Under the pieces are notes generated by a model. The model did no database searches. It was not told the origin of the DNA and saw only the letters and a program-made list of their open reading frames with translations. A DNA stretch of 35,917 bases from an uncultured Gammaproteobacteria bacterium. GTDB taxonomy: Bacteria > Patescibacteriota > Microgenomatia > 0-14-0-10-38-17. Position numbers and translations under genes: made by a program. This document shows, one piece after another, positions 2,445 to 34,478 of the stretch. Every line of letters starts with the position of its first letter. Position 1 is the first letter of the stretch. Location of the stretch: assembly GCA_964348895.1 (NCBI GenBank), contig CAYGEH010000001.1, positions 72,676 through 108,592 on the forward strand, written 5' to 3'.

Positions 2445-2762
2445 TTAAGAACACTCTCCCTCAAAGTAATAAGCTACAGCCTCGTTTCGACAGGCAAAAC
2501 AACTATTACTATAAGTTTGATTATTGTTTCCGCAAACTGGCTGATAAATTTCAAAACAAACTTCCGCCCCTCTTTGTTCTTCATAACAAAAGACTGCTGT
2601 CTCGGTTGATGGGGTTTCGTCAATAAAAGAAGACTCATTATCCTCTCTGTTTGTCTCCCTTAGTGTTTCTTTTCTATTTAGGTTGCTAAAATTTAAACCC
2701 AAAATTACCAAAAGAAATAAAATCGCCAATAAAATTAATACTAATCGACTATTTTTGGGCAT
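2445..2762 (-). CDS. Membrane-anchored Kazal-type serine protease inhibitor domain protein
   Basis: N-terminal hydrophobic helix, then C-X9-C-X7-C-X10-C-X2-C-X12-C containing CFEIYQPVCGNNNQTYSNSC (Kazal PVCG..TYxNxC signature). Confidence 0.85.
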   Translation of the reverse strand: MPKNSRLVLILLAILFLLVILGLNFSNLNRKETLRETNREDNESSFIDETPSTETAVFCYEEQRGAEVCFEIYQPVCGNNNQTYSNSCFACRNEAVAYYFEGECS

Positions 2763-3420
2763 TATTTACCTCTTTTTTATAGCAAAAATAAGAATAAATT
2801 GTTAAAAAAATCGCTGACAAAAGCACTGGGACGATTACTAGCCAAAAACCAAGATCTGGTAAAAAAAACCCTCCCAGAGCGATTAAACCTGAAATCTTAA
2901 ACAATAATCCACCTAAGCTATGGGTTTTTTGCCAAACTAAATCTGAGCTAATTGTCCAAGGAGTTTTGACACCAATAAACCAATTTCGCTTGGTCTTTTC
3001 CAATAAAGATCCCGTTAACCAAAGTAAAATTGCAAAAGGTAAAACCATAAAATAAATCAGATTAAATCGCCAGCCCAAATTCCAAGCTAAAACCAAAAGA
3101 TGAAGATAAAGCAGAAACAGCAGTATCAAAACAATAAAGCCATCAAAAGGAGAGCGAAATTTTTTAATATTTTCCCTTAGAGGATCAATTCGGGGGATTA
3201 ACCAAAACAAACCAAGCATTATCAGGGCTATTATTGGAGACAAAAATAAACCCCAAAAGCGAGAAAGATAGCTATTGGGTTGACCTAAGTAATCCCAACC
3301 GGAAACCATTTTTTCTGGCATCCGAGAATAAAAAAGCCCCCCCAACAAGAACCCTAAAAACACCAGTAAAACCATTAACCAATTGACCCATTCTTTACTG
3401 TTCTTTCTTTTTCTTGTCAT
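2749..3420 (-). CDS. SdpI/YhfL-family membrane immunity protein (with DUF1648-like N-terminus)
   Basis: About 6 TM helices; RIDPLREN, KRNWFIGVKTPWTISSDLVWQKTHSLGG motif typical of SdpI. Confidence 0.85.
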   Translation of the reverse strand: MTRKRKNSKEWVNWLMVLLVFLGFLLGGLFYSRMPEKMVSGWDYLGQPNSYLSRFWGLFLSPIIALIMLGLFWLIPRIDPLRENIKKFRSPFDGFIVLILLFLLYLHLLVLAWNLGWRFNLIYFMVLPFAILLWLTGSLLEKTKRNWFIGVKTPWTISSDLVWQKTHSLGGLLFKISGLIALGGFFLPDLGFWLVIVPVLLSAIFLTIYSYFCYKKEVNNAQK

Positions 3421-3510: not shown

Positions 3511-4383
3511 ATGAATAATAAAGAGGTCTTATTATTTCCAGAGCAACAAAAATATTTTACTCAACGTGGTGAAGCCTTTGTCATCGGTGAAGACATCACA
3601 AAAAAATACCCAGATCAAATAGGGTTTTTAACCAATCAAGGCTTATGGAAAAACTGCCTAAGAAAACATCGAGGCGGTCTTGGTTTGGCCTTGCTCTTAG
3701 ATGCTGATAAACAAACTGGCTTTGTTTTTAACCCCAACAACCAACAAATAGAAAATATATTTTCTATTCAACAAGAATCATTACCCGAAACAATCGCTGG
3801 AGCCATTGTTGTTTGCCCCCGTTCCCCCAACAGCCTAGAGTCTATTTCCGCTAACCTAGAAAGCATCCTCCTTTTTCTTTCAGAAGATGCGCCAGTTTTT
3901 GCTTTTGAAGATTTCCCTGAAAAGAACAATATTGACAAATCGCAAATAACCCAAGAGGCTCAAGCAAGAAAAGAGGCTCTTTTAGACTTAGGATTAGCAG
4001 AAGCAAAAATCTTAACCAGGCCAACCCTACAAAAAGGCGAGAAAATAAACTCCTTTTTAGTTTGGCGAAGTCGAATGCCCAAAAACTGGCGACCAAGAAA
4101 ACCAATTAACCTTCTTGATGAGGGTCCGCTTTGGCGAAGAAGCTTAGTGGAAAACTCTTTGATAGGGGCGACAAGACAATACGAACGAGCAGGGCTTACC
4201 GTCTTGAATGATGACGAAATTAGAGAAGCCCTAAGAAAAACTACCTTTCCTCTTAATACTATTGGGCAGGCAAAAATGGCTTTTGGCTTTCAAGTTGAGG
4301 CGCGTTGTGGTTGTTGTTGGAGCATTGATCTAAAGGGGGTTCAGACAAGAACTTATCAGTGCGAACGAGATTGTCAAAGTTAA
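3511..4383 (+). CDS. Hypothetical protein, 290 aa, with C-terminal Cys cluster (RCGCCW...QCERDC)
   Basis: Long ORF with its own promoter, filling the gap between neighbouring genes; no family recognised with confidence. Confidence 0.75.
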   Translation: MNNKEVLLFPEQQKYFTQRGEAFVIGEDITKKYPDQIGFLTNQGLWKNCLRKHRGGLGLALLLDADKQTGFVFNPNNQQIENIFSIQQESLPETIAGAIVVCPRSPNSLESISANLESILLFLSEDAPVFAFEDFPEKNNIDKSQITQEAQARKEALLDLGLAEAKILTRPTLQKGEKINSFLVWRSRMPKNWRPRKPINLLDEGPLWRRSLVENSLIGATRQYERAGLTVLNDDEIREALRKTTFPLNTIGQAKMAFGFQVEARCGCCWSIDLKGVQTRTYQCERDCQS

Positions 4384-5549
4384 CCGATAACAACTGCTAT
4401 TGGTGTTAATTTAATTTCCATTTTAGCTAGTTGTTCTTGATTTCTAATCACTTTTTCAATATCTTTGTAAGCCCAAGGAGATTCTTCGGCAATATTTCCC
4501 TTTTTCACTTTTCCCAAAACAACCCCCCTATTTTCAATATCGGCTAAAACCATTTGGGGAGAATATTTTTTCTTGGCTTCGTTTCTTCCCATTGACCGAC
4601 CAGCACCATGGGCACAAGAAGAAAAGCTATCTTTATTCCCCAAACCTGTTCCAAGATAAGATGGGGTTCCTAAGCTTCCTGGAACAATCACCGCTTCTCC
4701 TTTTCCAGCTCGAATTGCTCCTTTTCGATGAACCCAAACCTGTTTACCAAAGTGGATTTCGCAGGCGGCATAGTTATGGTGAACATTAATTGTTTCGCTA
4801 AAATTAACAGAGCCAAAGATTTCTTCTAGAACCCTTTTGGCCTTAGCTAAAATCACCTGTCGGTTTTTCTGAGCAAACTCCATCGCCATTTCCATCGCTT
4901 CAATATAGGCCTCCGCCTCTGGTGTTTTGCTGTCAAAATAGGCTAAATCATAGTCTGGTAAGTCAAGGCCCTTGTGATAGCATTGTTTTTTTGCCATTTG
5001 ATGAAACAAGCTGGCGACAGCGTAACCAAAATGCCGAGAGCCAGTGTGAACCATCAAAGCTGCTTGACTCTGTTCGTCTTTTAATAAATCAACAAAATGG
5101 TTTCCTCCACCCAAACTCCCAAGCGATCTTTGGGCTCGATCAACTTCTCTCTCAAGCTCTGGCGGTAATAACTCTTTCCTTAAAAAAAGAGTTCCGGGCT
5201 GGGGTTGATCATAAACTCCAAATCCAATTGGAATTTCTCGCCTTATCTGGTTAACAAATCTTTCTAGATCGTTCATCTTAATCTTCTCAATTGGAATGTC
5301 GGTTCCGACATAAGCCATACCACAACCAATATCTACCCCAACCGCGTTGGGACAAATCGCTCCCTCCAGGGCCAGAACACCGCCAATGGGCATACCATAA
5401 CCAAGATGAGCATCTGGCATTAGGGCGACATGGTGATAGGCTGAAGGAAGATTAGCCATATTTTTGGCTTGCCTCAAACAGGTCTCCTCTAGTTCTTTTG
5501 GATCAGCAAAAACAAGCAGGGGAACTTTTTGATCTTTAATTATGATCAT
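4380..5549 (-). CDS. rtcB: RNA 3'-phosphate/2',3'-cyclic-phosphate ligase RtcB
   Basis: MPDAHLGYGMPIGGV, VGVDIGCGM, SLGGGNHF, HTGSR, HHNY, WVHRKGA, PGSLG, SCAHGAGR (guanylylated His motif). Confidence 0.96.
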   Translation of the reverse strand: MIIIKDQKVPLLVFADPKELEETCLRQAKNMANLPSAYHHVALMPDAHLGYGMPIGGVLALEGAICPNAVGVDIGCGMAYVGTDIPIEKIKMNDLERFVNQIRREIPIGFGVYDQPQPGTLFLRKELLPPELEREVDRAQRSLGSLGGGNHFVDLLKDEQSQAALMVHTGSRHFGYAVASLFHQMAKKQCYHKGLDLPDYDLAYFDSKTPEAEAYIEAMEMAMEFAQKNRQVILAKAKRVLEEIFGSVNFSETINVHHNYAACEIHFGKQVWVHRKGAIRAGKGEAVIVPGSLGTPSYLGTGLGNKDSFSSCAHGAGRSMGRNEAKKKYSPQMVLADIENRGVVLGKVKKGNIAEESPWAYKDIEKVIRNQEQLAKMEIKLTPIAVVIG

Positions 5550-5559
5550 AAGAAAGGCT

Positions 5560-6357
5560 TCACTTCTGTTCGTTATGCCAAAAGGTAATTATTTTCTCTC
5601 TGCGACTATCCAAGGATTCTTGGTTAATAATCCCCGCTCCGCTAATACAACCGCCTTCGCAATAAAGAATATCCAGTAATTTTATTTCTGGTTGACTAGA
5701 AAATTCCTGAAGTGTTTTCTCGACTAATTCTGGTCCAGAAATAACACTATATTCGGAATCAGTAAGCGTTTTGGTTAGTCCAGACGATTGGGCCAATCCT
5801 CCGGAAATCGGATAGAGCCTTGTGTGCGAGGCAGCAAGGTCAAAAGAATAATCTTGGTCGCTTTTTTGAGGAAAAATATTTTTAATTCTAAATATTTCCG
5901 CTATTTCTTGATAAGTTAAAACCACTATCTCTAGCTCCGCGTGGTCCTCTTTGGCTTCTAATTTCTTGGCAACACACGGACCAATATAGACTTTTCGATG
6001 ATTTGGATATTTTTCGGCGACTATTTTTGCCGTAGCGATCATTGGTGAATCAACTAAAGCTAGAAATGGAACAAGATCGGGGTATTTATTTTTAACTAAA
6101 CGAACAATCGTAGGACAAGGAGCAGTGATATATCTTTGACCAGGACTAAGTTTTAATAAATCAAGCAGTTGGCGATTGGTCTCCACCGCTCCGACCCCAA
6201 CCTCAACCACATGGCCAAAACCCAATCGCCTTAACATTCCAACAAACTCAGGATAAGAAAAATCAACCAGAAAAGATGGGGCAATCATCGCCACCATTTC
6301 CTCTTTTCTCTCCACAAATCCAAGAATTTCTTCTATTTCCGCAGTGTAATTGCTCAT
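5560..6357 (-). CDS. Stand-alone [FeFe]-hydrogenase H-cluster-domain protein (ultraminimal, 265 aa)
   Basis: IAPSF; P1 ITAPC81PT; DSPM; P2 GPC128VAK131KLE134; P3 DILYC233EGGC237ISGAG. No accessory ferredoxin domains. Confidence 0.88.
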   Translation of the reverse strand: MSNYTAEIEEILGFVERKEEMVAMIAPSFLVDFSYPEFVGMLRRLGFGHVVEVGVGAVETNRQLLDLLKLSPGQRYITAPCPTIVRLVKNKYPDLVPFLALVDSPMIATAKIVAEKYPNHRKVYIGPCVAKKLEAKEDHAELEIVVLTYQEIAEIFRIKNIFPQKSDQDYSFDLAASHTRLYPISGGLAQSSGLTKTLTDSEYSVISGPELVEKTLQEFSSQPEIKLLDILYCEGGCISGAGIINQESLDSRREKIITFWHNEQK

Positions 6358-6365
6358 AAATAAAG

Positions 6366-6881
6366 TCAGAGTCTGTTAATCTTTTTTAAAAAGAAATAGG
6401 CCAATAAACCACCAACTAAAGCGGTAAAAAGCTGCGACCAACCCATCATCAAGACTATTCTTTGGGCAACTTCTCTTTTACTAAATAAGCCAACCACTGT
6501 CATGCTGGAACTGAATAAGAAGAAGAACTTTAAAGTGCCGGCCACCACTACTCCTAGCCAATAATTGTCCTTCAAATAATTAAAAGCTATTACTAATATA
6601 GTGTTTCCCACCATGATAAAAGGAATCATTGGGGCTAAAACTGGAGGCAAAAGGCCAGTGGATAACGCGATTAGACTTGGGATCAAGCCAACTAAAATCC
6701 CCGCCTGAACACCCAAAAGAATAGTGGAAACAAATAGGGTAGCGTTAACAAGGGGACCAGTAATCGCCTGATGTCCAAATAAGGGCGCCAGGGTAGCAAC
6801 CCCCACTAAAATTACAAGCTGGGTTAGAAAAAGAATTCTTTCTTTGTCTAGTGTTAAAATTTTTGTTTTATTCATAAACAT
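6366..6881 (-). CDS. ECF-transporter S-component-like integral membrane protein (about 171 aa, about 6 TM)
   Basis: Size, hydrophobic pattern and the motif HQAITGPLVNATLF...GLIPSLIAL...GLLPP...PFIMVGN match my recollection of S-component families. Start re-called to MFMNK (6881, or 6875). Confidence 0.65.
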   Translation of the reverse strand: MFMNKTKILTLDKERILFLTQLVILVGVATLAPLFGHQAITGPLVNATLFVSTILLGVQAGILVGLIPSLIALSTGLLPPVLAPMIPFIMVGNTILVIAFNYLKDNYWLGVVVAGTLKFFFLFSSSMTVVGLFSKREVAQRIVLMMGWSQLFTALVGGLLAYFFLKKINRL

Positions 6882-6959
6882 TCTCGTTCTTGTTTTCTTG
6901 TTGCTATTTTCGCGTAAAATCAGCTGGCGCACTGTTTAAATAATTCAATCCGTGTTCTT

Positions 6960-6968
6960 ATTATGACA
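6960..6968 (-). promoter_or_regulatory. Probable extended -10 promoter (TGtCATAAT) for the S-component/hydrogenase/rtcB operon
   Basis: Minus strand reads gtgtCATAATaagaacacgg; implies a 5' leader of about 70-80 nt. Confidence 0.45.
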
Positions 6969-7091
6969 CAAAACTTCTATCTCTTAATTGGTTAGACTCA
7001 TAGATTTAGAAGTTTTTCACCTTGTAAATATGCACTCAATGGCTTCAAGTGTTCTATCCCCTTATATGATCTGTAATAAAAATAATTTTCA

Positions 7092-7520
7092 TTATTTTTT
7101 ATATAAAACAAAATGCGGCAAGAGATTTAAGTCAATATAGTTAAACATCCAATAATTAGCCCTTTTAGCCGTTTGTGGTAATTGATATTTTTTTAAATTA
7201 TTTTTCGATACAAAAGGATAAAATCTAATTTCTTGATGGCTCCCAGATTTATCTTCCCACTTAAAATTAGCTATCATTGGAGGAACGAGAAAACCTGATT
7301 TCAACACTTTGTCCATTATCTGCCAACCTGCTCCAAAGATTTTCTTTTTTGGCTTTGAAAGATTGGTTTTTACTTGTGCCCGAAAAGAGCATCCTGTACA
7401 TTGGACATCATAGAGTGGGTAGTTGGGAGGTAGAGCCATTAGTTTCTTGCTACAATTTGGACAAGGGACAAGTTCAATAACTTCTAGTTCTCCTGTATTT
7501 CCAGCTTGTTTATTAGACAT
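7092..7520 (-). CDS. DpnI (Dam-replacing)-like nuclease, catalytic domain only (142 aa)
   Basis: GE..CPNC-x14-D-x2-CxxC-x4-QxK; later GAGWQIM and LPQTAKRANY..YIDLNLLP, colinear with the recalled DpnI motifs CPNC..PVADFYCxxC..ELKS, DGAYxTM and LAPTARRAGW..IDLSQVP. Confidence 0.75.
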   Translation of the reverse strand: MSNKQAGNTGELEVIELVPCPNCSKKLMALPPNYPLYDVQCTGCSFRAQVKTNLSKPKKKIFGAGWQIMDKVLKSGFLVPPMIANFKWEDKSGSHQEIRFYPFVSKNNLKKYQLPQTAKRANYWMFNYIDLNLLPHFVLYKK

Positions 7521-7808: not shown

Positions 7809-8423
7809 TCATTGTCCCTCACTAAGACTGTAAAGATAAGCCCATACGATAACTGCAATTGCCGTTAATATATAAGCCAAAACTAGCCTTCTTTCTTCTT
7901 TAACCACTATTGTCCCTGTTTTTGTATCATGCCACGCTTGCCTTTTGTCATTCTTGTTCATATTCCAATATCCGACACCAAAGAAAAGCAGTGAAAGAGG
8001 TTGTAACAATGAACGCCCCAAAGCTGACCCAAAACCCAACCTTTCTTTGTTCTTGGTAAGAATTCTCAAACCATATAAATGTTTACCAGGGGTAGTTGAC
8101 CAGATGCTTAGAACTAAAGTATTATATATAACAAAAGATAGATAGCTCGAAACCATATTAGACAAATCCCAAACACCCTCACCAAATATTGGACCTAAAA
8201 CAAAACCTATTACAAATATATAGCCTACTCCTACCACCAAATAATCAATCAAATACGCACCAAGCCTAATCCAGAAACCAGCATAGTCTAATTTTGTGGA
8301 GCTTTTAGTCATCTCCTCTGCTATAGATAATTCCTTGTGACGGTTGCCAACAATCTTATTTCCACAATGCCTACAAAACTTGCTATCTTTGGGTATTTTT
8401 TCCCCACAATGTTTGCAATACAT
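7809..8423 (-). CDS. Zinc-ribbon + RDD-family membrane protein
   Basis: N-terminal CKHC-x10-CRHC; YAGFWIRLGAYLIDY, TPGKHLYGLRI, RQAWHDTKTGTIVV (RDD signature). Confidence 0.9.
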   Translation of the reverse strand: MYCKHCGEKIPKDSKFCRHCGNKIVGNRHKELSIAEEMTKSSTKLDYAGFWIRLGAYLIDYLVVGVGYIFVIGFVLGPIFGEGVWDLSNMVSSYLSFVIYNTLVLSIWSTTPGKHLYGLRILTKNKERLGFGSALGRSLLQPLSLLFFGVGYWNMNKNDKRQAWHDTKTGTIVVKEERRLVLAYILTAIAVIVWAYLYSLSEGQ

Positions 8424-8460
8424 GTATTTCGCTTCTTCTTACTTAAAAGGTGTTAATTTT

Positions 8461-9075
8461 TTATAAATCATAGTCGGCGCTTTCTATTTTCCAAGTCCAC
8501 CAAGATTGGCCTCGTGGGTAAAAATTTATAGGAACCTGAAAGCTAAACGCCCCGTTTGCCTCGGCACCACTCCAAATGGTTACAATACGAGTATCAAAAT
8601 GTCTTTTCAGAGCCTCGTCATAATAAAAGTCTAGTCTCACACTTACATTCCGGGCCGCCCCTGAATAAGCATTTTTTAAGGTTCCCACAAAATAGCTTTC
8701 AAAATAATCGTCATAAATGATGTCATAATCAGTTATATTTAGATGGCTTATGGGGAAGGTGGCGGATTCTGTTTTAATATTTGTTGTTTGGCTCTTTTCG
8801 CTTGACAGTGAAGCTAGCACTGTTATTCCAATAAACCCTAGTATAGTCCCCACGCAGGCAATAAACACAAACCTTTCAATAGGTTTTTTTGAAAACATTT
8901 CCTTTTTCTTTGGTCTGAATATTACATCATCAATCTTTTCGATCTCTTCGTGAAGCGAAGCAGCTATGGTTTTAACTTTTTTTAAATTTTCGGAGGTTAA
9001 CTCAAATCCACATTCCTGACAAAATTTACTTCCTTTTAAGTTCTCGAACAAGCATTGGGGGCATTTAATCTTCAT
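8461..9075 (-). CDS. Zinc-ribbon + single TM + FxLYD-like extracellular beta-sandwich protein
   Basis: CPQC-x10-CQEC; TM helix at about aa 70-90; VGTLKNAYSGAARNVSVRLDFYYD resembles the FxLYD domain. Confidence 0.7.
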   Translation of the reverse strand: MKIKCPQCLFENLKGSKFCQECGFELTSENLKKVKTIAASLHEEIEKIDDVIFRPKKKEMFSKKPIERFVFIACVGTILGFIGITVLASLSSEKSQTTNIKTESATFPISHLNITDYDIIYDDYFESYFVGTLKNAYSGAARNVSVRLDFYYDEALKRHFDTRIVTIWSGAEANGAFSFQVPINFYPRGQSWWTWKIESADYDL

Positions 9076-9084
9076 ATTAAATTC

Positions 9085-9873
9085 CTAACCAGATTTTATC
9101 ATAAAGCTTTCTCTCCAAAACAGCATTAAGTTTTTAATTCTGTTGGTAATTAAGGGGTGGCTAATCAAAAACTCGCTGAATTTTACAGAACTCATTTCTG
9201 CGGTCTTAATTTGGGCTACATAGCCTTTTATGTTTAGTTGCTCATATAACTTCTTGCCAACAGCCAATTTGATTAAAGCCGAAAGGGCACTATCGATATT
9301 CTTCGTAAGTATTAATCCACACCTGTCACAGGAATATTCTGTTTTTCTACTCCAAAGTCCAAAAATTAGTCCACTTAAAACATTATTATTTCCTATTGGT
9401 ATGAACAAAGTAGACAGTTTTGTGTGTCCGGCTTTATAGTGTCCTAATTCATGTCCTATTACAAAACTTAGTTCCTTCTGACTAAGTTGTTCTACAAGAG
9501 CTGAATTTAAAACTACCGTGCAACTTGTTATCCCAAGAGTAAATGCATTAAGATAGGGGTCTTGAATGATATACAAAGAAGCCCTTGGAAGCTCTAATTT
9601 CGTTGCTTGATCTCTAAATAATTCATAAATGTCTGAATATTGACCTTTGTGCACCCTAATGGCGTTCCCTAAAAATTGTGCTTGCTGTAACCGCACATAA
9701 ATTACAGCCCCAAAGAGGACAAACAGAAAGATGTAAATATCGAATATATAAAGAAAAAGGCTTATTCCAATAAGAGTAGCAAGGCTTAAAAGAAAGGCAA
9801 GATGTTCGCGGGGAACACGAAACATCCACGCCTCTACTTTGTTTATCTCATTTTCATAAGTTTGATTTTTCAT
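9085..9873 (-). CDS. M48-family (HtpX/Ste24-like) membrane zinc metallopeptidase
   Basis: Two N-terminal TM helices; YIIQDPYLNAF, FVIGHELGH (HExxH), WSRKTEYSCDR, SHPLITNRI. An alternative start at Met17 (9825) is possible. Confidence 0.9.
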   Translation of the reverse strand: MKNQTYENEINKVEAWMFRVPREHLAFLLSLATLIGISLFLYIFDIYIFLFVLFGAVIYVRLQQAQFLGNAIRVHKGQYSDIYELFRDQATKLELPRASLYIIQDPYLNAFTLGITSCTVVLNSALVEQLSQKELSFVIGHELGHYKAGHTKLSTLFIPIGNNNVLSGLIFGLWSRKTEYSCDRCGLILTKNIDSALSALIKLAVGKKLYEQLNIKGYVAQIKTAEMSSVKFSEFLISHPLITNRIKNLMLFWRESFMIKSG

Positions 9874-9876
9874 TTG

Positions 9877-9947
9877 TTGCCCAGCTAGGATTCGAACCTA
9901 GATTCTTCGGTTCAGAGCCGAATGTCCTACCATTAGACGACCGGGCA
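9877..9947 (-). tRNA. tRNA-Gln, anticodon CUG; CCA not encoded
   Basis: TGCCCGG/CTGGGCA acceptor stem (U1-A72), D-arm GTCTAATGGTAGGAC, anticodon arm TTCGG-ctCTGaa-CCGAA, T-arm CTAGG-TTCGAAT-CCTAG; discriminator A followed by CAA. Confidence 0.97.
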
Positions 9948-9962
9948 TTAAAGTTAAGGCTT

Positions 9963-9971
9963 ATTTTATCA
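9963..9971 (-). promoter_or_regulatory. Extended -10 promoter (TGaTAAAAT) for tRNA-Gln
   Basis: 15 nt upstream of the mature tRNA 5' end, inside the gltX-tRNA gap. Confidence 0.55.
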
Positions 9972-9986
9972 AAAAAAGAGAAAAAG

Positions 9987-11402
9987 TTAGCCTAAGGTAA
10001 CTTGAAGTCTTTCTAGGCTTTCTCTTTGCCCTAAAATCGCCATCGAATCATTAATCGGTGGAGTCTGACAAGAGCCGGTAATGGCTATTCGTAAAGTCAT
10101 AAAAAAGTCGCCTGTTGGCCAATTGTTTTTCTCAATTAAAGCCATTAGTTTAAGAGTTATTTCTTCTTCTTGCCATTTTTCAATAGATTGAAGCGCTTTA
10201 ACTGCTTCGACTAAATAATTCTTATAATCTCCTTTAACATTTTTAGCTAAAAAGTCTCTTGTTACCTTGGGGGCTTTGAAAAAAAATCCAGCTAAGCTAT
10301 TAAATTCGGTTAATTTAACTATCCTGTCTTTCACTAGCGGAACAATTTTAATTAACAAGTCCTCGCTTACTCCCTCAGAAACGAACGGTTTTAATAATTC
10401 AACTAGCTCTTTAGTGTTCTTCATTCTAATATATTGACCGTTAAACCAATCTAGTTTTTTAATATCAAAAACAGCGTTTTGTTTTTGAATTTTTTTGTAA
10501 TCGAAAACCTCTGTTAGTTCTTCTAGGGAAAGAAGGTGAGAATTATCTTGATAAGACCAACCAAGATATACCATAAAATTAATCAGTGCTTCTTTTAAAT
10601 AACCTTCGTCACGGTAGTCAAGGACTGATTTTGCCCCATGTCTCTTGGAAAGCTTAGTTTTATCCGGCCCCAAAATTAAGGGCAAGTGCATCATTTCTGG
10701 CACCTCCCAACCTAAAGACTGATACAGAAAAAGATGTTTAGGGGTAGAAGAAATCCACTCTACTCCTCTGATAATATGACTAATTTCCATATCATGATCG
10801 TCAACCACAACCGCCAAGTGATAAGTGGGAAAACCGTCCGACTTTAATAATACTTGGTCGTCTAAGTCTTTAGAATTAATAGTAATTTCCCCTTGAATCA
10901 AGTCAACCCAAGTAAAATCTTTTCTTTCGGGCATTTTTATGCGAATCACAAATTGGCCCATTTCTTTCTTTTCCTCGATTTCTGTTTTTGACAAAGATAA
11001 GCAATGGCGATCATATTTGGGGACTTGACCAGTCTTTCCTTGCTCTTGGCGAAGATTATTTAGGCGAACAGAAGGGCAAAAACAATAATAAGCAACCCCT
11101 CTTTCAACTAATTCTTTGGCCACTTCCTGATAACGAGCTAGGCGTTGGGACTGAAAATAAGGGGCAAAGACTCCTCCCACCCCAGGGCCCTCGTCCCAAT
11201 TTAATCCCAAAAACTCTAATATCTCTAAGATTTTTTCTAAAGACTCTGGTTGGTACCTTTTTCTGTCGGTGTCTTCCACTCGAACAATAAACTGCCCCCC
11301 AGTTTGACGAGCCAATAACCAATCAAAAAGAGCGGTTCTGCTGTTACCAATATGGGGAATTCCGGTTGGGGAAGGAGCAAAACGAACTCTAACTGACCTC
11401 AT
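9987..11402 (-). CDS. gltX: Glutamyl-tRNA synthetase
   Basis: VRVRFAPSPTG.PHIGN (HIGH), RVEDTD, DGFPTYHLAVVVDD, KLSKRHG (KMSKS). Start re-called to MRSVRV (11402), 10 nt after TGaTAAAAT. Confidence 0.97.
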   Translation of the reverse strand: MRSVRVRFAPSPTGIPHIGNSRTALFDWLLARQTGGQFIVRVEDTDRKRYQPESLEKILEILEFLGLNWDEGPGVGGVFAPYFQSQRLARYQEVAKELVERGVAYYCFCPSVRLNNLRQEQGKTGQVPKYDRHCLSLSKTEIEEKKEMGQFVIRIKMPERKDFTWVDLIQGEITINSKDLDDQVLLKSDGFPTYHLAVVVDDHDMEISHIIRGVEWISSTPKHLFLYQSLGWEVPEMMHLPLILGPDKTKLSKRHGAKSVLDYRDEGYLKEALINFMVYLGWSYQDNSHLLSLEELTEVFDYKKIQKQNAVFDIKKLDWFNGQYIRMKNTKELVELLKPFVSEGVSEDLLIKIVPLVKDRIVKLTEFNSLAGFFFKAPKVTRDFLAKNVKGDYKNYLVEAVKALQSIEKWQEEEITLKLMALIEKNNWPTGDFFMTLRIAITGSCQTPPINDSMAILGQRESLERLQVTLG

Positions 11403-11412
11403 CTTGGTTTGA

Positions 11413-11438
11413 ATTTTATCATCTCTGGGTGTTATACT
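11413..11438. promoter_or_regulatory. Back-to-back extended -10 promoters: TGaTAAAAT (minus, 11413-11421, gltX) and TGtTATACT (plus, 11430-11438)
   Basis: Both motifs are read directly in the 68-bp divergent gap. Confidence 0.65.
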
Positions 11439-11470
11439 CAAACGTAAGGGTTGTCCTCTTTAGTAAAAAA

Positions 11471-12544
11471 ATGAGCCAATTAACTCAAGCTGCCCATTAT
11501 GCCCGAAAGTTTATTAAGTTTTCTCTTTTGGGTCTAGCTGCAATCATTCTTCTCGTACCTCTTGCTAGGGCCTTTGGTGAATATTGGCGAGATCGTAACC
11601 CCGTCCCCCCTCCACCGCCAAACATGGCTCTTGGTAAAATTCCACCCATTAATTTCGGCTTAGAAAGACATCAGCTAGAAGATTTTTCTTTTCAACTCCA
11701 AACCCCAGATGGTGGACTTCCGAGTTTGGGAACCCAATCCAGGGTTTATTTCATTCCAATTTTAGGCTCTAGGTTTTTCGACGAAGATAAAACCAGAAGA
11801 ACAGCTTCTCAAATGGGATTTACCAGAGAGGTTGGTAAAATTAGCCCAACTCGCTTTGCTTTTTCTAATCCTAGAACTAACGCCACCATAAGAATAGACA
11901 CCGTTAACAACAACTTTGAAATTAGCTTTCCTTGGGAAGAAAGTCTTTTCTTTGTTAATAGCCAAGGTCCCGAACAACTTCAGGCTTTAAGGTCAGTCCA
12001 AAATTTTTTGTCCAGAGCCAATTTATGGCAAGAAGATATCGCGCCGCAAAATGCAACTTTTTTGTTTTTGAAATATGATCAAGAACAGCAAGATCTAATC
12101 GCTGTCTCCTCCTTGTCAGAAAGCCAATTAACTAAAGTAAACCTAAGAAGGACCGATTTGGATGGCAAGCAAATTATGCCTCCTGATCCTGACGAGGCGA
12201 ACATTTCTTTTATTCTTTCTTCTCAAAGAGAAAATCAAGAAATTATTTTCGGCAAATATATTCGCTACCCCATTAATTATGATCGCTGGGGAACATATCC
12301 GATTAAATCTTCAGTTACCGCTTGGGAGGAACTTAAGTCTGGGCAGGGCTTCATTGCTCGATTGGGAAACAATTCCGTCAATGAGCCAATTATTATTCGC
12401 AGTGTCTATTTGGCTTATTTTGACCCTGAGGTGCCTCAGGATTTTTTGCAACCAATTTTTGTCTTTGAGGGTCTTAATGATTTTCTAGCCTACCTCCCCG
12501 CCCTAGACCCCTCAATGGTTAGTCAAGAAAATCAAACAAATTAA
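11471..12544 (+). CDS. Hypothetical membrane-anchored extracytoplasmic protein (about 357 aa)
   Basis: N-terminal TM helix followed by PVPPPPP; C-terminal IIIRSVYLAYF...LQPIFVFEG (weakly YycI-like). Start re-called to MSQLTQ (11471). Confidence 0.8.
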   Translation: MSQLTQAAHYARKFIKFSLLGLAAIILLVPLARAFGEYWRDRNPVPPPPPNMALGKIPPINFGLERHQLEDFSFQLQTPDGGLPSLGTQSRVYFIPILGSRFFDEDKTRRTASQMGFTREVGKISPTRFAFSNPRTNATIRIDTVNNNFEISFPWEESLFFVNSQGPEQLQALRSVQNFLSRANLWQEDIAPQNATFLFLKYDQEQQDLIAVSSLSESQLTKVNLRRTDLDGKQIMPPDPDEANISFILSSQRENQEIIFGKYIRYPINYDRWGTYPIKSSVTAWEELKSGQGFIARLGNNSVNEPIIIRSVYLAYFDPEVPQDFLQPIFVFEGLNDFLAYLPALDPSMVSQENQTN

Positions 12545-21800: not shown

Positions 21801-22376
21801 TTAGGTTAAAAGGTGGGTCTCATTGCCTAAAACGGTTAAGCGAGGAGCCATTAAAAGATTGGTTAAAAATGGGTCTTTGCCCGAGTAGCGAAACCTAAAT
21901 TCCGCCTCATCCATCACTGAATAATTAATTTCTCTTTTTTTGTTTCTTTCTTCTTGAGAAATCAATGCCGACAATTCTGGCAAAATAACCTCACCAACAA
22001 CAAAAACATCAATCGCTTCGTCTTGTCTGGGTTTCCCTTGGGCAAAACTTTTAGAAAAAAAGACCCATTTTATTTTCCCCAAGCGAGGCTGATTTTTAAT
22101 AATTGCCTCTCCTAGGCCAACCGTTTTTAGAAAAAGTAATAAAAGTGCCTCATAGTGAACAAAGTCTTGGTCAAGATAAAAATAAATCCGATTAGCTCTT
22201 TTTTCGCTTTTAAGAAGACCAAGTCTCCTCAGATTATCCAGCTCCCGACGAACGGCATTTATTTGCTCGTTAATCTTTCTGGATAATTGCCGACCATAAT
22301 AAAGCTTGTCGGGACAAGAAAAAAAGGTTTCCAGTAACTTAATCCTTACCTTAGAAACAAATAGATGACGAAGCAT
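21801..22376 (-). CDS. Winged-HTH fused to a degenerate minimal nucleotidyltransferase (MNT-like) domain
   Basis: N-terminal wHTH (YGRQLSRKI..NAVRRELDNLRRLGLL); C-terminal FSKSFAQG...EAIDVFVVG (degenerate GS..DxD). Confidence 0.7.
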   Translation of the reverse strand: MLRHLFVSKVRIKLLETFFSCPDKLYYGRQLSRKINEQINAVRRELDNLRRLGLLKSEKRANRIYFYLDQDFVHYEALLLLFLKTVGLGEAIIKNQPRLGKIKWVFFSKSFAQGKPRQDEAIDVFVVGEVILPELSALISQEERNKKREINYSVMDEAEFRFRYSGKDPFLTNLLMAPRLTVLGNETHLLT

Positions 22377-33608: not shown

Positions 33609-34478
33609 TCACCCACGAAGAGCCTGTCCCACTTCTTCTAAAAACCTAAAACCCTTTTCGTGAAACGGAGAACCAGGCAGTTGTTGGAATGGGGAAATAA
33701 CAACCTCCACTCGTAAAGAGCTAACTTCTATTTCTTTTGCTGCTTCAGCCACCTCTTTTAGAATGCCCTTACCAGCCAGCAGGTCACTAACCTCATTGCC
33801 AGAAGAAGGATTAATATCAACCACCTTGATTCCATCTGAAAAAGTCTTAAACTGTCTTTCCCATTCGCCCTGTAGCGGTCTAGTTGGTAATCCAGGCTGA
33901 CTTATTACTCGCCTTGAGGGAAGAAGGTGTTTTGGGTCAAAAACTAAACCAAACCCTCTTTCTTTAGCTTTGGCTAAAATTTCTTCAGAAGAAAGATTTA
34001 TACCCTGGTTTATCTCCACTAAAAGCCTGTCGTCTGGAAAATCTACATCAATCTCGTGAGAGATAAACTTCACTTCTGGAAAAGCTTCGGTTATTTCCCG
34101 AAAAAGCCTGTCACAAGTTGTTTCGCTAGGAAAAAAAGAGTCTTGAAGTATGGGTGGCTCGCTTGTATCTCCTCTATATCTTTTCCAATGTCCAATCAGG
34201 CCAGCCAAAACCGATTTTGTTAAGTTGTCTTCTGCAGTGGGGTTCCATGCTTCTTCAATATGGACAATCTGGAGAGGTGATCTTTTTATTTGATCGACCC
34301 CACTCTCCATTAAGGCCCTAAAGGGTAAAATACACCCAGATTGATAACCTGCTTTGGTCAAACCCCCCAGCAACTCTTTAAAATCTTCCTCTCTTATTGT
34401 AAGAAGCAAACCCCCTGCTAGGTTATATTCAAGCTTTGGGACTTCCGCCCCCGTTGTCTTTTGAGTCTCCATCGACAT
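33609..34478 (-). CDS. Hypothetical protein, possibly a degenerate xylose-isomerase/AP-endonuclease-like TIM barrel
   Basis: Alternating beta/alpha pattern with LLVEIN, LVFDPKH, VVDI, LRVEV; TGaTAGAAT 9 nt upstream (34488-34496). Confidence 0.55.
   Translation of the reverse strand: MSMETQKTTGAEVPKLEYNLAGGLLLTIREEDFKELLGGLTKAGYQSGCILPFRALMESGVDQIKRSPLQIVHIEEAWNPTAEDNLTKSVLAGLIGHWKRYRGDTSEPPILQDSFFPSETTCDRLFREITEAFPEVKFISHEIDVDFPDDRLLVEINQGINLSSEEILAKAKERGFGLVFDPKHLLPSRRVISQPGLPTRPLQGEWERQFKTFSDGIKVVDINPSSGNEVSDLLAGKGILKEVAEAAKEIEVSSLRVEVVISPFQQLPGSPFHEKGFRFLEEVGQALRG

Follow-up and report, generated by a model that had tools for sequence, protein, structure and literature searches.

The 35,917-nucleotide stretch analysed here (hereafter the window; positions 72,676 to 108,592 of contig CAYGEH010000001.1, assembly GCA_964348895.1), from a Patescibacteriota genome of the Candidate Phyla Radiation (CPR), carries a gene for a small membrane protein with a predicted energy-coupling factor (ECF) S-component fold, followed by a gene for an ultraminimal [FeFe]-hydrogenase-like protein that comprises the catalytic H-domain only. 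The family of this membrane protein was shown to be adjacent, near-obligately and in both of its branches (S1 and S2), to H-domain genes of three architectures in CPR bacteria and DPANN archaea, namely those of the long NuoF-associated HydA, of the HydABC enzyme and of the bare H-domain (Hmin). The H-domain is the sole feature common to all of these partners, and the service of the membrane protein would therefore concern the H-domain itself. The membrane protein is tentatively read, with confidence somewhat short of even, as a ligand-supply protein dedicated to the hydrogenase, plausibly for assembly or upkeep of the H-cluster. A first-pass annotation, made from the window sequence alone, had placed the S-component-like gene 8 nt before the hydrogenase ATG on the same strand, which was confirmed from the sequence; the translational linkage that it proposed may be inferred from this 8-nt spacer, in which no Shine-Dalgarno sequence is evident before the H-domain ATG. 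The two genes are probably co-transcribed.

Relatives of the S1 branch, to which the window protein belongs, were detected in 235 genomes when one genome per GTDB species was searched with the family alignment, and 80 loci, nearly all labelled Patescibacteria, were analysed; the profile built from the alignment recovered the relatives, whereas the same genome search with a single S sequence recovered none. Among the 73 loci with enough upstream sequence, 67 have the S1 gene (45–66% identical at the protein level to the window membrane protein) immediately downstream of a gene for a HydA of ~570 amino acids on the same strand, with a median gap of 5 nt and frequent overlaps, and chance adjacency to an H-domain gene in a genome of ~700 genes would be well under 1%. 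The HydA partners are of the group-A type with Fer2/Fer4 domains, the H-domain and the small subunit, and their catalytic motifs (TSCCP, MPCxxKKxE and EVMACxGGCxGGGG) are canonical in 66 of 66 sequences, so the long CPR HydA proteins need a real H-cluster. A NuoF-like gene (Complex1_51K and NADH_4Fe-4S domains, ~329 amino acids) precedes hydA with a 4-nt overlap in 55 of 82 S1 loci, and the three-gene operon of the NuoF-like gene, hydA and the six-transmembrane-helix (6TM) gene would be a reduced NAD(P)H-linked hydrogenase. Examples of this operon are seen in L166 (2287-3270), L168 (211-1284) and L027 (3075-4064), and no HydC-like gene was seen in two annotated examples. No minimal H-domain gene was found within 8 kb of the S1-HydA loci, and no member of the membrane family was found adjacent to long HydA in ~60 non-CPR loci, except for one convergent case (L111). 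In L111 an S-like gene (9804-10346, minus strand; 180 amino acids, 37% identical to the window protein) lies convergent to, and 3 nt after, a kinase gene (7812-9800, plus strand).

The S2 branch was observed around the minimal enzymes. Twenty metagenome loci contained a true minimal H-domain gene, of which 16 were informative, and an S2 membrane gene lies directly upstream of the minimal gene in 14 of the 16 (11 on the same strand and 3 divergent). The S2 proteins are only 23–34% identical to the window membrane protein and have no Pfam match; an hhalign comparison (probability 99.6%, E 1.9e-23) shows homology between S1 and S2 from end to end, which makes them two paralogous branches of one membrane family. 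Relatives of S2 carry CPR and archaeal names (WS6, Staskawiczbacteria, Nanoarchaeota and 'archaeon'), and in one archaeal metagenome-assembled genome (MAG; L169) a hydC-hydB-hydA operon ends with a 4-nt overlap into an S2-type gene. No third gene recurs around the S2-Hmin pairs, genes for RtcB and for a flavoprotein included. On WS6-like contigs (L098 10564-15243, L099 and L125) the minimal H-domain gene and a divergent S2 gene adjoin a gene for ADP-forming acetyl-CoA synthetase, with the genes for both subunits of 2-oxoacid:ferredoxin oxidoreductase adjacent, as a compact fermentation block. The conservation of the pairing had been set beforehand as decisive by the first-pass annotation, and it stood in so far as the membrane gene adjoins an H-domain gene in both branches (67/73 and 14/16 loci); it did not stand as regards the partner, since the usual companion of S1 is the full-length group-A HydA and not the minimal enzyme.

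The window is atypical in that an S1-type gene occupies the S2 position, upstream of a minimal H-domain gene. The order S1 before Hmin was found in just one further lineage, L165 (proteins 69% and 64% identical to those of the window); elsewhere an S1 gene 68% identical to that of the window follows a long HydA, and a minimal enzyme 70% identical to that of the window probably shares one 16,450-base contig with an S2-type protein. The possibility that the S1 protein of the window gained S2-like residues was rejected, as G147 is the sole match to S2 and is absent from the second S1-Hmin lineage. By its sequence, S1 appears able to stand in for S2 without S2-like residues, which is more in keeping with a generic service than with an interface tailored to the partner.

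The partner protein in the window is an H-domain-only [FeFe]-hydrogenase-like enzyme without accessory Fe-S domains, as judged from its motifs and predicted structure. It matches PF02906 (Fe_hyd_lg_C; E 3e-34) in a single stretch over residues 20–241, shows no Fer4 or Fer2 domain, and covers only the C-terminal half (209–461) of the 462 positions of NCBIfam TIGR04105 (monomeric [FeFe] hydrogenase). The H-cluster motifs of TmHydA and CpI have counterparts in its motifs APS, APCP, SPMI, GPCVAKKLE and ILYCEGGCISGAG by alignment, with the residue correspondences given in Table 1, and the AlphaFold2 model (pLDDT 86.9) reaches TM 0.72–0.80 to the H-domains of the HydA of T. kivui, the HydA of T. maritima and CpI. 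The minimal enzyme has 408 relatives of ~263 amino acids, few of them with source names (Patescibacteria, Nealsonbacteria, Staskawiczbacteria and similar), and its nearest longer relatives, at 30–36% identity, are group C-like H-domain sensor histidine kinases. Those kinases (L103-L164) have ~660 amino acids with Fer4, H-domain, PF04060, HisKA and HATPase_c domains and are often encoded just downstream of a 573-amino-acid HydA on non-CPR contigs.

This kinship bears on the suggestion that the 265-amino-acid protein is an H2 or redox sensor, or an Fe-S protein rather than a working hydrogenase, with the membrane protein as its signalling or tethering partner. Such a role would agree with the loss of the proton-relay cysteine throughout the family (Pro, less often Ala, at the C299 position in 120 relatives), with the changes at M353 (Gly) and M497 (Leu), and with the histidine kinases being the closest non-minimal relatives, one of which (L111) has the S-like gene 3 nt downstream. 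A sensor is nevertheless very improbable, since the protein has no output domain, the [2Fe] pocket residues are kept (the A-P-S motif, P324, K358, E361 and the four cysteines) and related minimal enzymes stand in a fermentative setting with 2-oxoacid:ferredoxin oxidoreductase and ADP-forming acetyl-CoA synthetase genes. Moreover, the ultraminimal group E enzymes of DPANN archaea, with an average of 286 amino acids and altered proton-transfer residues, evolve H2 after artificial maturation by [2Fe]adt loading (Greening et al. 2024, Cell; PMC11216029).

That the membrane protein is of the S-component kind, as read at first from the sequence, is now also borne out by its predicted fold. An AlphaFold2 model built on 42 relatives (pLDDT 89.4, pTM 0.84) has six membrane helices (residues 13-35, 38-56, 58-75, 80-102, 107-132 and 136-167, the last one kinked), and its seven best Foldseek matches in the PDB are all ECF S-components (TM 0.50–0.71, probability 0.95–1.00, E-values only 0.01–0.4), with T. 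maritima RibU at the top (TM 0.65–0.71), then ThiT, S. aureus RibU and HmpT. The window protein scores 25.8 bits against PF12822 (ECF_trnsprt) in the Pfam scan, under the 30.7-bit cut-off, and this family is matched by 42 of 42 aligned S1 relatives at E ≤ 0.1 (best E 5e-10); the window protein has no NCBIfam match and no PDB sequence match. The membrane family comprises 518 homologues of ~170 amino acids, with 1070 clusters at 50% identity; a look-up of these clusters yielded hardly any names for the distant members. The ECF S-component fold is supported by this modelling, and membership in a working ECF transporter is not supported. In group II S-components an AxxxA-type small-residue motif in helix 1, which is not universal among S-components, docks on EcfT; helix 1 of the window protein reads G27-V-A29-T-L-A32-P33, which is AxxA and not AxxxA, with P33 alone kept between S1 and S2. 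EcfA and EcfT genes are not recurrent in the 82 S1 neighbourhoods. Several 170-amino-acid, six-helix homologues (P0014, P0020, P0033, P0048 and P0056) bear the NCBI name 'iron hydrogenase' despite having no H-domain and no NCBIfam match; this name is a misnomer, probably propagated from adjacency to hydA, and the analysis corrects it for the membrane family.

The fold raises the alternative of an ordinary vitamin or metabolite S-component, for instance for riboflavin as the source of the FMN of the NuoF-like partner, which would be co-regulated only and would have come to lie beside the minimal enzyme by rearrangement. The riboflavin and thiamine S-components are the best structural matches, PF07155 (the riboflavin S-component family) is weakly matched by 4 of 42 S1 members (E ≥ 0.0016), the NuoF-like flavoprotein gene precedes hydA in the majority of S1 loci noted above (55/82), and CPR cells are auxotrophs. 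An ordinary importer is improbable all the same, as the sequence identity to RibU and ThiT is just 16–21%, neither a flavoprotein nor any other neighbour recurs around the S2-Hmin modules, which yet keep the same invariant pocket residues, and a general importer is not expected beside an H-domain gene in ~90% of genomes. Riboflavin supply for the NuoF-like flavoprotein was rejected as a general explanation on account of these S2-Hmin modules without a flavoprotein.

Residues P33, Q38, G42, N46, P68, S69, G76, P87, N93, K118, Q150, T153 and G157 are invariant in S1 and S2 alike. The polar set among them (Q38, N46, S69, N93, the mid-helix lysine K118, Q150 and T153) is intramembrane, while the cytoplasmic loops are without any residue invariant in both branches; no Cys, His or acidic residue is invariant in the family, and the conserved set consists of Gln/Asn/Ser/Thr and one Lys. 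By analogy with S-components the protein would be oriented N-in/C-in, which the positive charges at both termini support, and this topology would place the invariant residues in the outer and middle parts of helices 2–6, where S-components hold their substrates. A small ligand of polar or anionic character is suggested by the buried invariant Lys and the Asn, Gln, Ser and Thr that accompany it.

Under the ligand-supply reading, an S1-branch accessory membrane protein and an ultraminimal H-domain [FeFe] hydrogenase would form a two-gene CPR module, in which the membrane protein would hold a small polar or anionic ligand in a pocket of Q38, N46, S69, N93, K118, Q150 and T153 that opens towards the outside, and would serve the H-domain by passing it to the cytoplasmic side. 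The most plausible choice of ligand would be a component or precursor used to build or keep the H-cluster where HydEFG is not used, and energy coupling might be that of a solitary S-component or of a shared ECF module encoded elsewhere. This reading is preferred because of the pocket residues, the biosynthetically poor lineages (DPANN being documented without HydEFG) and the apparent interchangeability of S1 and S2.

The spacing of the genes may also be seen differently, in that the 6TM protein could be a structural membrane anchor or docking partner, which tethers or shields the hydrogenase without transport and might move protons via its buried Lys; this is judged nearly as probable as ligand supply. 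Near-abutting or overlapping genes are typical of complex subunits (median gap of 5 nt, 4-nt overlap in L169, 8 nt in the window), the association tracks the H-domain whatever its accessory domains, and minimal group E enzymes expressed alone are poorly soluble and were modelled with a solvent-exposed H-cluster (PMC11216029). The minimal enzyme is without the proton-relay Cys, so that an external proton path could be needed, and no ECF motor genes were seen nearby. An anchor is disfavoured by the residues invariant in both paralogues, which lie within the membrane, away from the cytoplasmic loops that a soluble partner would be expected to bind, and by S1, the usual companion of a 570-amino-acid HydA, adjoining a 265-amino-acid enzyme with almost no sequence adaptation. 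The long CPR HydA proteins are complete and canonical, and CpI-type enzymes are soluble and active without an anchor; in addition, no fusion of both proteins occurs among the best 150 family representatives.

Several observations weigh against ligand supply. Six of the 73 S1 genes are without a same-strand upstream H-domain gene; for five of these no H-domain gene lies within about 3.5–8 kb, and for the sixth a long HydA is encoded on the opposite strand, 848 nt downstream. The membrane family has no conserved Cys or His, though such residues might be expected for iron or cluster handling, and the conserved Asn/Gln/Ser/Gly/Pro in the helices can be purely structural. No EcfA or EcfT was found near ~170 loci, in the neighbourhoods covered, and a motorless S-component could transport no more than weakly. 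The absence of HydEFG was seen in hydrogenase neighbourhoods only, which makes it weak evidence, as unlinked maturase genes are possible in CPR genomes, that of the window included. The tight gene overlap is equally expected for subunits of one complex, and the poor solubility and exposed H-cluster of group E enzymes point to a missing protein partner and not to a metabolite.

The searches for maturases and ECF modules gave negative results within their scope. No hydE, hydF, hydG, ferredoxin, ecfA or ecfT gene was found among the 36 open reading frames (ORFs) of the window scanned with Pfam, in which the only radical-SAM gene is MiaB-like, and none in ~10 kb past the left end and ~8.5 kb past the right end of the window on the same contig; the absence of these genes from 36 kb, as first stated, was thus upheld and holds for the flanks likewise. 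The neighbourhoods of 110 hydrogenase loci of CPR and DPANN, 1.23 Mb in all, yielded no HydE, HydG or HydF candidate, although this is weak evidence because maturase genes need not be linked. Eight radical-SAM ORFs in this 1.23 Mb were rejected as HydE or HydG, being Elp3, AmmeMemoRadiSam, SPASM maturases, LipS2 and MiaB. In a single case (L094 11685-12674, minus strand) a LipS2-type lipoyl synthase gene lies 3 kb from an S2-Hmin pair; in canonical H-cluster maturation the lipoyl-H-protein feeds the azadithiolate bridge. Nothing decisive on maturases or ECF modules in CPR was found in the literature; one paper gives ecfA as absent from three CPR MAGs, and the description of the cultured Minisyncoccus is without mention of a hydrogenase. 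In archaea (DPANN), a full HydEFG set is present in only 5 of 130 genomes with [FeFe] hydrogenases, an alternative maturation pathway was deemed likely, and the source of the H-cluster in organisms without HydE, HydF and HydG (DPANN archaea, Giardia and Entamoeba) was posed as unresolved in 2024 (PMC11216029).

A more specific version, which we regard as a long shot, is that the S-component-like protein is the entry of a HydEFG-independent H-cluster route: it would capture what a host or neighbour releases, either a preformed [2Fe] carbonyl-cyanide complex or a late precursor, hold the cyanides in the Lys/Asn/Gln pocket and hand it over to the apo-hydrogenase at the inner membrane face. HydA itself holds its cyanide ligands through Lys and hydrogen bonds of the backbone and not through extra cysteines, the Lys/Asn/Gln set of the membrane protein resembles this arrangement, and by this analogy a coordinatively saturated carbonyl-cyanide complex would be held by hydrogen bonds and Lys. 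The import of the [2Fe]H subcluster, of a precursor or of iron by the membrane protein, as proposed in the first-pass annotation, is unsupported.

With regard to significance, a single small membrane family with a substrate-capture fold was found beside H-domain genes of each architecture in both ultra-small-symbiont radiations, and it is a concrete and cheap candidate bearing on how the H-cluster is acquired without HydE, HydF and HydG. If the supply of cluster components is true, it would define a new route, of maturation or of scavenging, and would serve as a tool for the in vivo production of hydrogenases; if the anchor role is true, it would explain why minimal hydrogenases are poorly soluble and how they can be produced; and if the protein is the entry point of a [2Fe] complex, it would explain active [FeFe] hydrogenases in CPR, DPANN and perhaps other maturase-less organisms.

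The features of the locus and the residue correspondences of the minimal enzyme are listed in Table 1. The membrane gene has a second in-frame ATG at 6875, which gives the 169-amino-acid product recorded by gene callers (P0001). The RtcB gene is possibly co-transcribed with the membrane and H-domain genes at the window locus, and it is outside the conserved module, as it is not a recurrent neighbour in other S-Hmin loci. The promoter-like site is a candidate start of the S-Hmin(-RtcB) transcript, which is weak evidence since the consensus scan returned 4 sites against 8.5 expected; no terminator-like site was found between the membrane, H-domain and RtcB genes (5549-5560 included) by a consensus scan, likewise weak evidence. 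A wastewater RNA-seq contig of 259 nt covers 6110-6360 at 99% identity and is a weak sign of transcription of the H-domain gene. A strain ~97% identical (run X5) keeps 4369-6985 and loses synteny beyond about 6953-6985, so the segment upstream of the module, including 7092-7520, is variable; a 142-amino-acid DpnI-like (Dam-replacing family) protein, shorter than the Pfam model, is encoded there just upstream of the module (7092-7520, minus strand).

Table 1. Features of the two-gene locus in window coordinates, and correspondence of functional residues between CpI and the 265-amino-acid protein.
Feature	Window coordinates	Strand	CpI residue(s)	Window protein	Remarks
S1-type hyd6TM-like membrane protein, predicted ECF S-component fold	6366..6881	minus			171 amino acids from ATG 6881; TGA at 6368-6366
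Spacer CTTTATTT, 8 nt	6358..6365	minus			separates TGA of membrane gene from ATG (6357) of H-domain gene; read from sequence
Ultraminimal H-domain-only [FeFe]-hydrogenase-like protein, group E-like, without accessory Fe-S domains	5560..6357	minus			265 amino acids; PF02906
RtcB RNA ligase gene	4380..5549	minus			PF01139, E 5e-109; 10 nt downstream of H-domain gene
Promoter-like site TTAAGA, 16 nt, TG-CATAAT (extended -10)	6960..6987	minus			upstream of membrane gene; consensus scan only
H-cluster cysteines			C300, C355, C499, C503	C81, C128, C233, C237 (kept)	invariant in 35 sequences
[2Fe] pocket			A230-P231-S232	A26-P27-S28 (kept)	
[2Fe] pocket			P324	P105 (kept)	
Cyanide-ligand-binding Lys			K358	K131 (kept)	
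Pocket residue			E361	E134 (kept)	
Pocket residue			M353	G126 (Gly)	
Pocket residue			M497	L231 (Leu)	
Proton-relay Cys (first Cys of TSCCP)			C299	Pro (A-P-C-P)	

The rest of the window is housekeeping, with genes for a GltX-type synthetase, a class II aminoacyl-tRNA synthetase, RelA/SpoT, RecJ, the CCA-adding enzyme, SecDF, MiaA, a MiaB-type radical-SAM enzyme, YchF, TatD and HU. The class Ic Glu/Gln-tRNA synthetase gene (9987-11441) is followed, 40 nt downstream, by a tRNA-Gln gene (anticodon CTG; 9876-9947, minus strand), and no other RNA gene was found in the window by tRNA and Rfam scans. A Kazal-type serine-protease-inhibitor domain, which is uncommon in bacteria, was observed in a 105-amino-acid protein (2445-2762, minus strand), whose gene runs into the end of that for an SdpI/DUF1648 membrane protein (2749-3420). 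Two tandem 204-amino-acid proteins (7809-8423 and 8461-9075, both on the minus strand) each have a zinc ribbon at the start; the first (7809-8423) also has an RDD membrane domain, and the second (8461-9075) has no further domain match. Five ORFs of 147–371 amino acids have no Pfam match (11429-12544 on the plus strand, 3511-4383 on the plus strand, and 33609-34478, 21801-22376 and 994-1437 on the minus strand), of which the 371-amino-acid ORF (11429-12544) begins inside the end of the opposite-strand synthetase gene and may not be a real gene. Between recA and a metallophosphatase gene, about 5-7 kb outside the window on its right-hand side (L172 4826-5515), there are a resolvase-family recombinase and several small ORFs without annotation; this segment may be a small mobile insertion.

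Among described systems, the closest is the 'hyd6TM, uncharacterized' protein of 4 to 6 transmembrane helices labelled in DPANN hydrogenase clusters, which appears in figure legends only, in archaea only and with group A enzymes only, and which was not recognised as S-component-like (Greening et al. 2024, PMC11216029). The first-pass annotation knew of no described system of this kind, and this has to be withdrawn, since hyd6TM had already been labelled in those clusters, most of the genomes being without HydEFG (PMC11216029); the module of the window is a variant of a gene association noticed earlier but never characterised. A literature search found no paper in which a hyd6TM-like protein is connected with the S-component fold, Patescibacteria, the minimal enzymes or maturation. 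Like hyd6TM, the window protein is small, with 4-6 helices, and adjoins an [FeFe] hydrogenase gene in a lineage of ultra-small symbionts; the link is formed by the S2-type homologue after hydC-hydB-hydA in the archaeal MAG and by the homology of S2 to S1, the published hyd6TM being likened by description only. Unlike hyd6TM, the window protein belongs to a CPR bacterium, its partner is a minimal H-domain rather than a group A enzyme, and its family has two paralogous branches; the published hyd6TM is shown with group A and not with group E (PMC11216029). The hyd6TM-like S1 genes in other genomes, however, do follow a group-A-type HydA (67/73).

The window enzyme resembles the DPANN group E enzymes, such as the 33-kDa enzyme Fm of 'Ca. 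Forterrea multitransposorum', in consisting of the H-domain only, with one [4Fe-4S] site and a [2Fe] pocket, condensed loops, altered proton-transfer residues and a similar length (265 amino acids against an average of 286); it differs in being bacterial (CPR), and the likeness to group E drawn here is one of design. With the ECF S-components RibU, ThiT, FolT and HmpT (PF12822) the membrane protein shares a length of ~170 amino acids, six helices, the same predicted fold and, as may be deduced, polar residues at the substrate site, whereas the window protein falls under the Pfam cut-off, S2 has no Pfam match and no EcfAA'T was seen nearby. To our knowledge, none of the known S-component families has a tie to a hydrogenase gene. 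The comparison with HydF is one of possible functional analogy only, as an accessory that hands an H-cluster component to apo-HydA, and HydF has no homology to the membrane protein; in HydEFG maturation HydF, a soluble GTPase that carries a [4Fe-4S] cluster, acts as the scaffold from which the [2Fe] precursor is delivered. As with the solitary S-components, of which BioY is an example, no ecfA or ecfT gene adjoins the membrane gene, which is scattered with respect to any motor; BioY, a biotin binder, has no link to an enzyme gene, unlike the membrane family described here, which is tied to H-domain genes.

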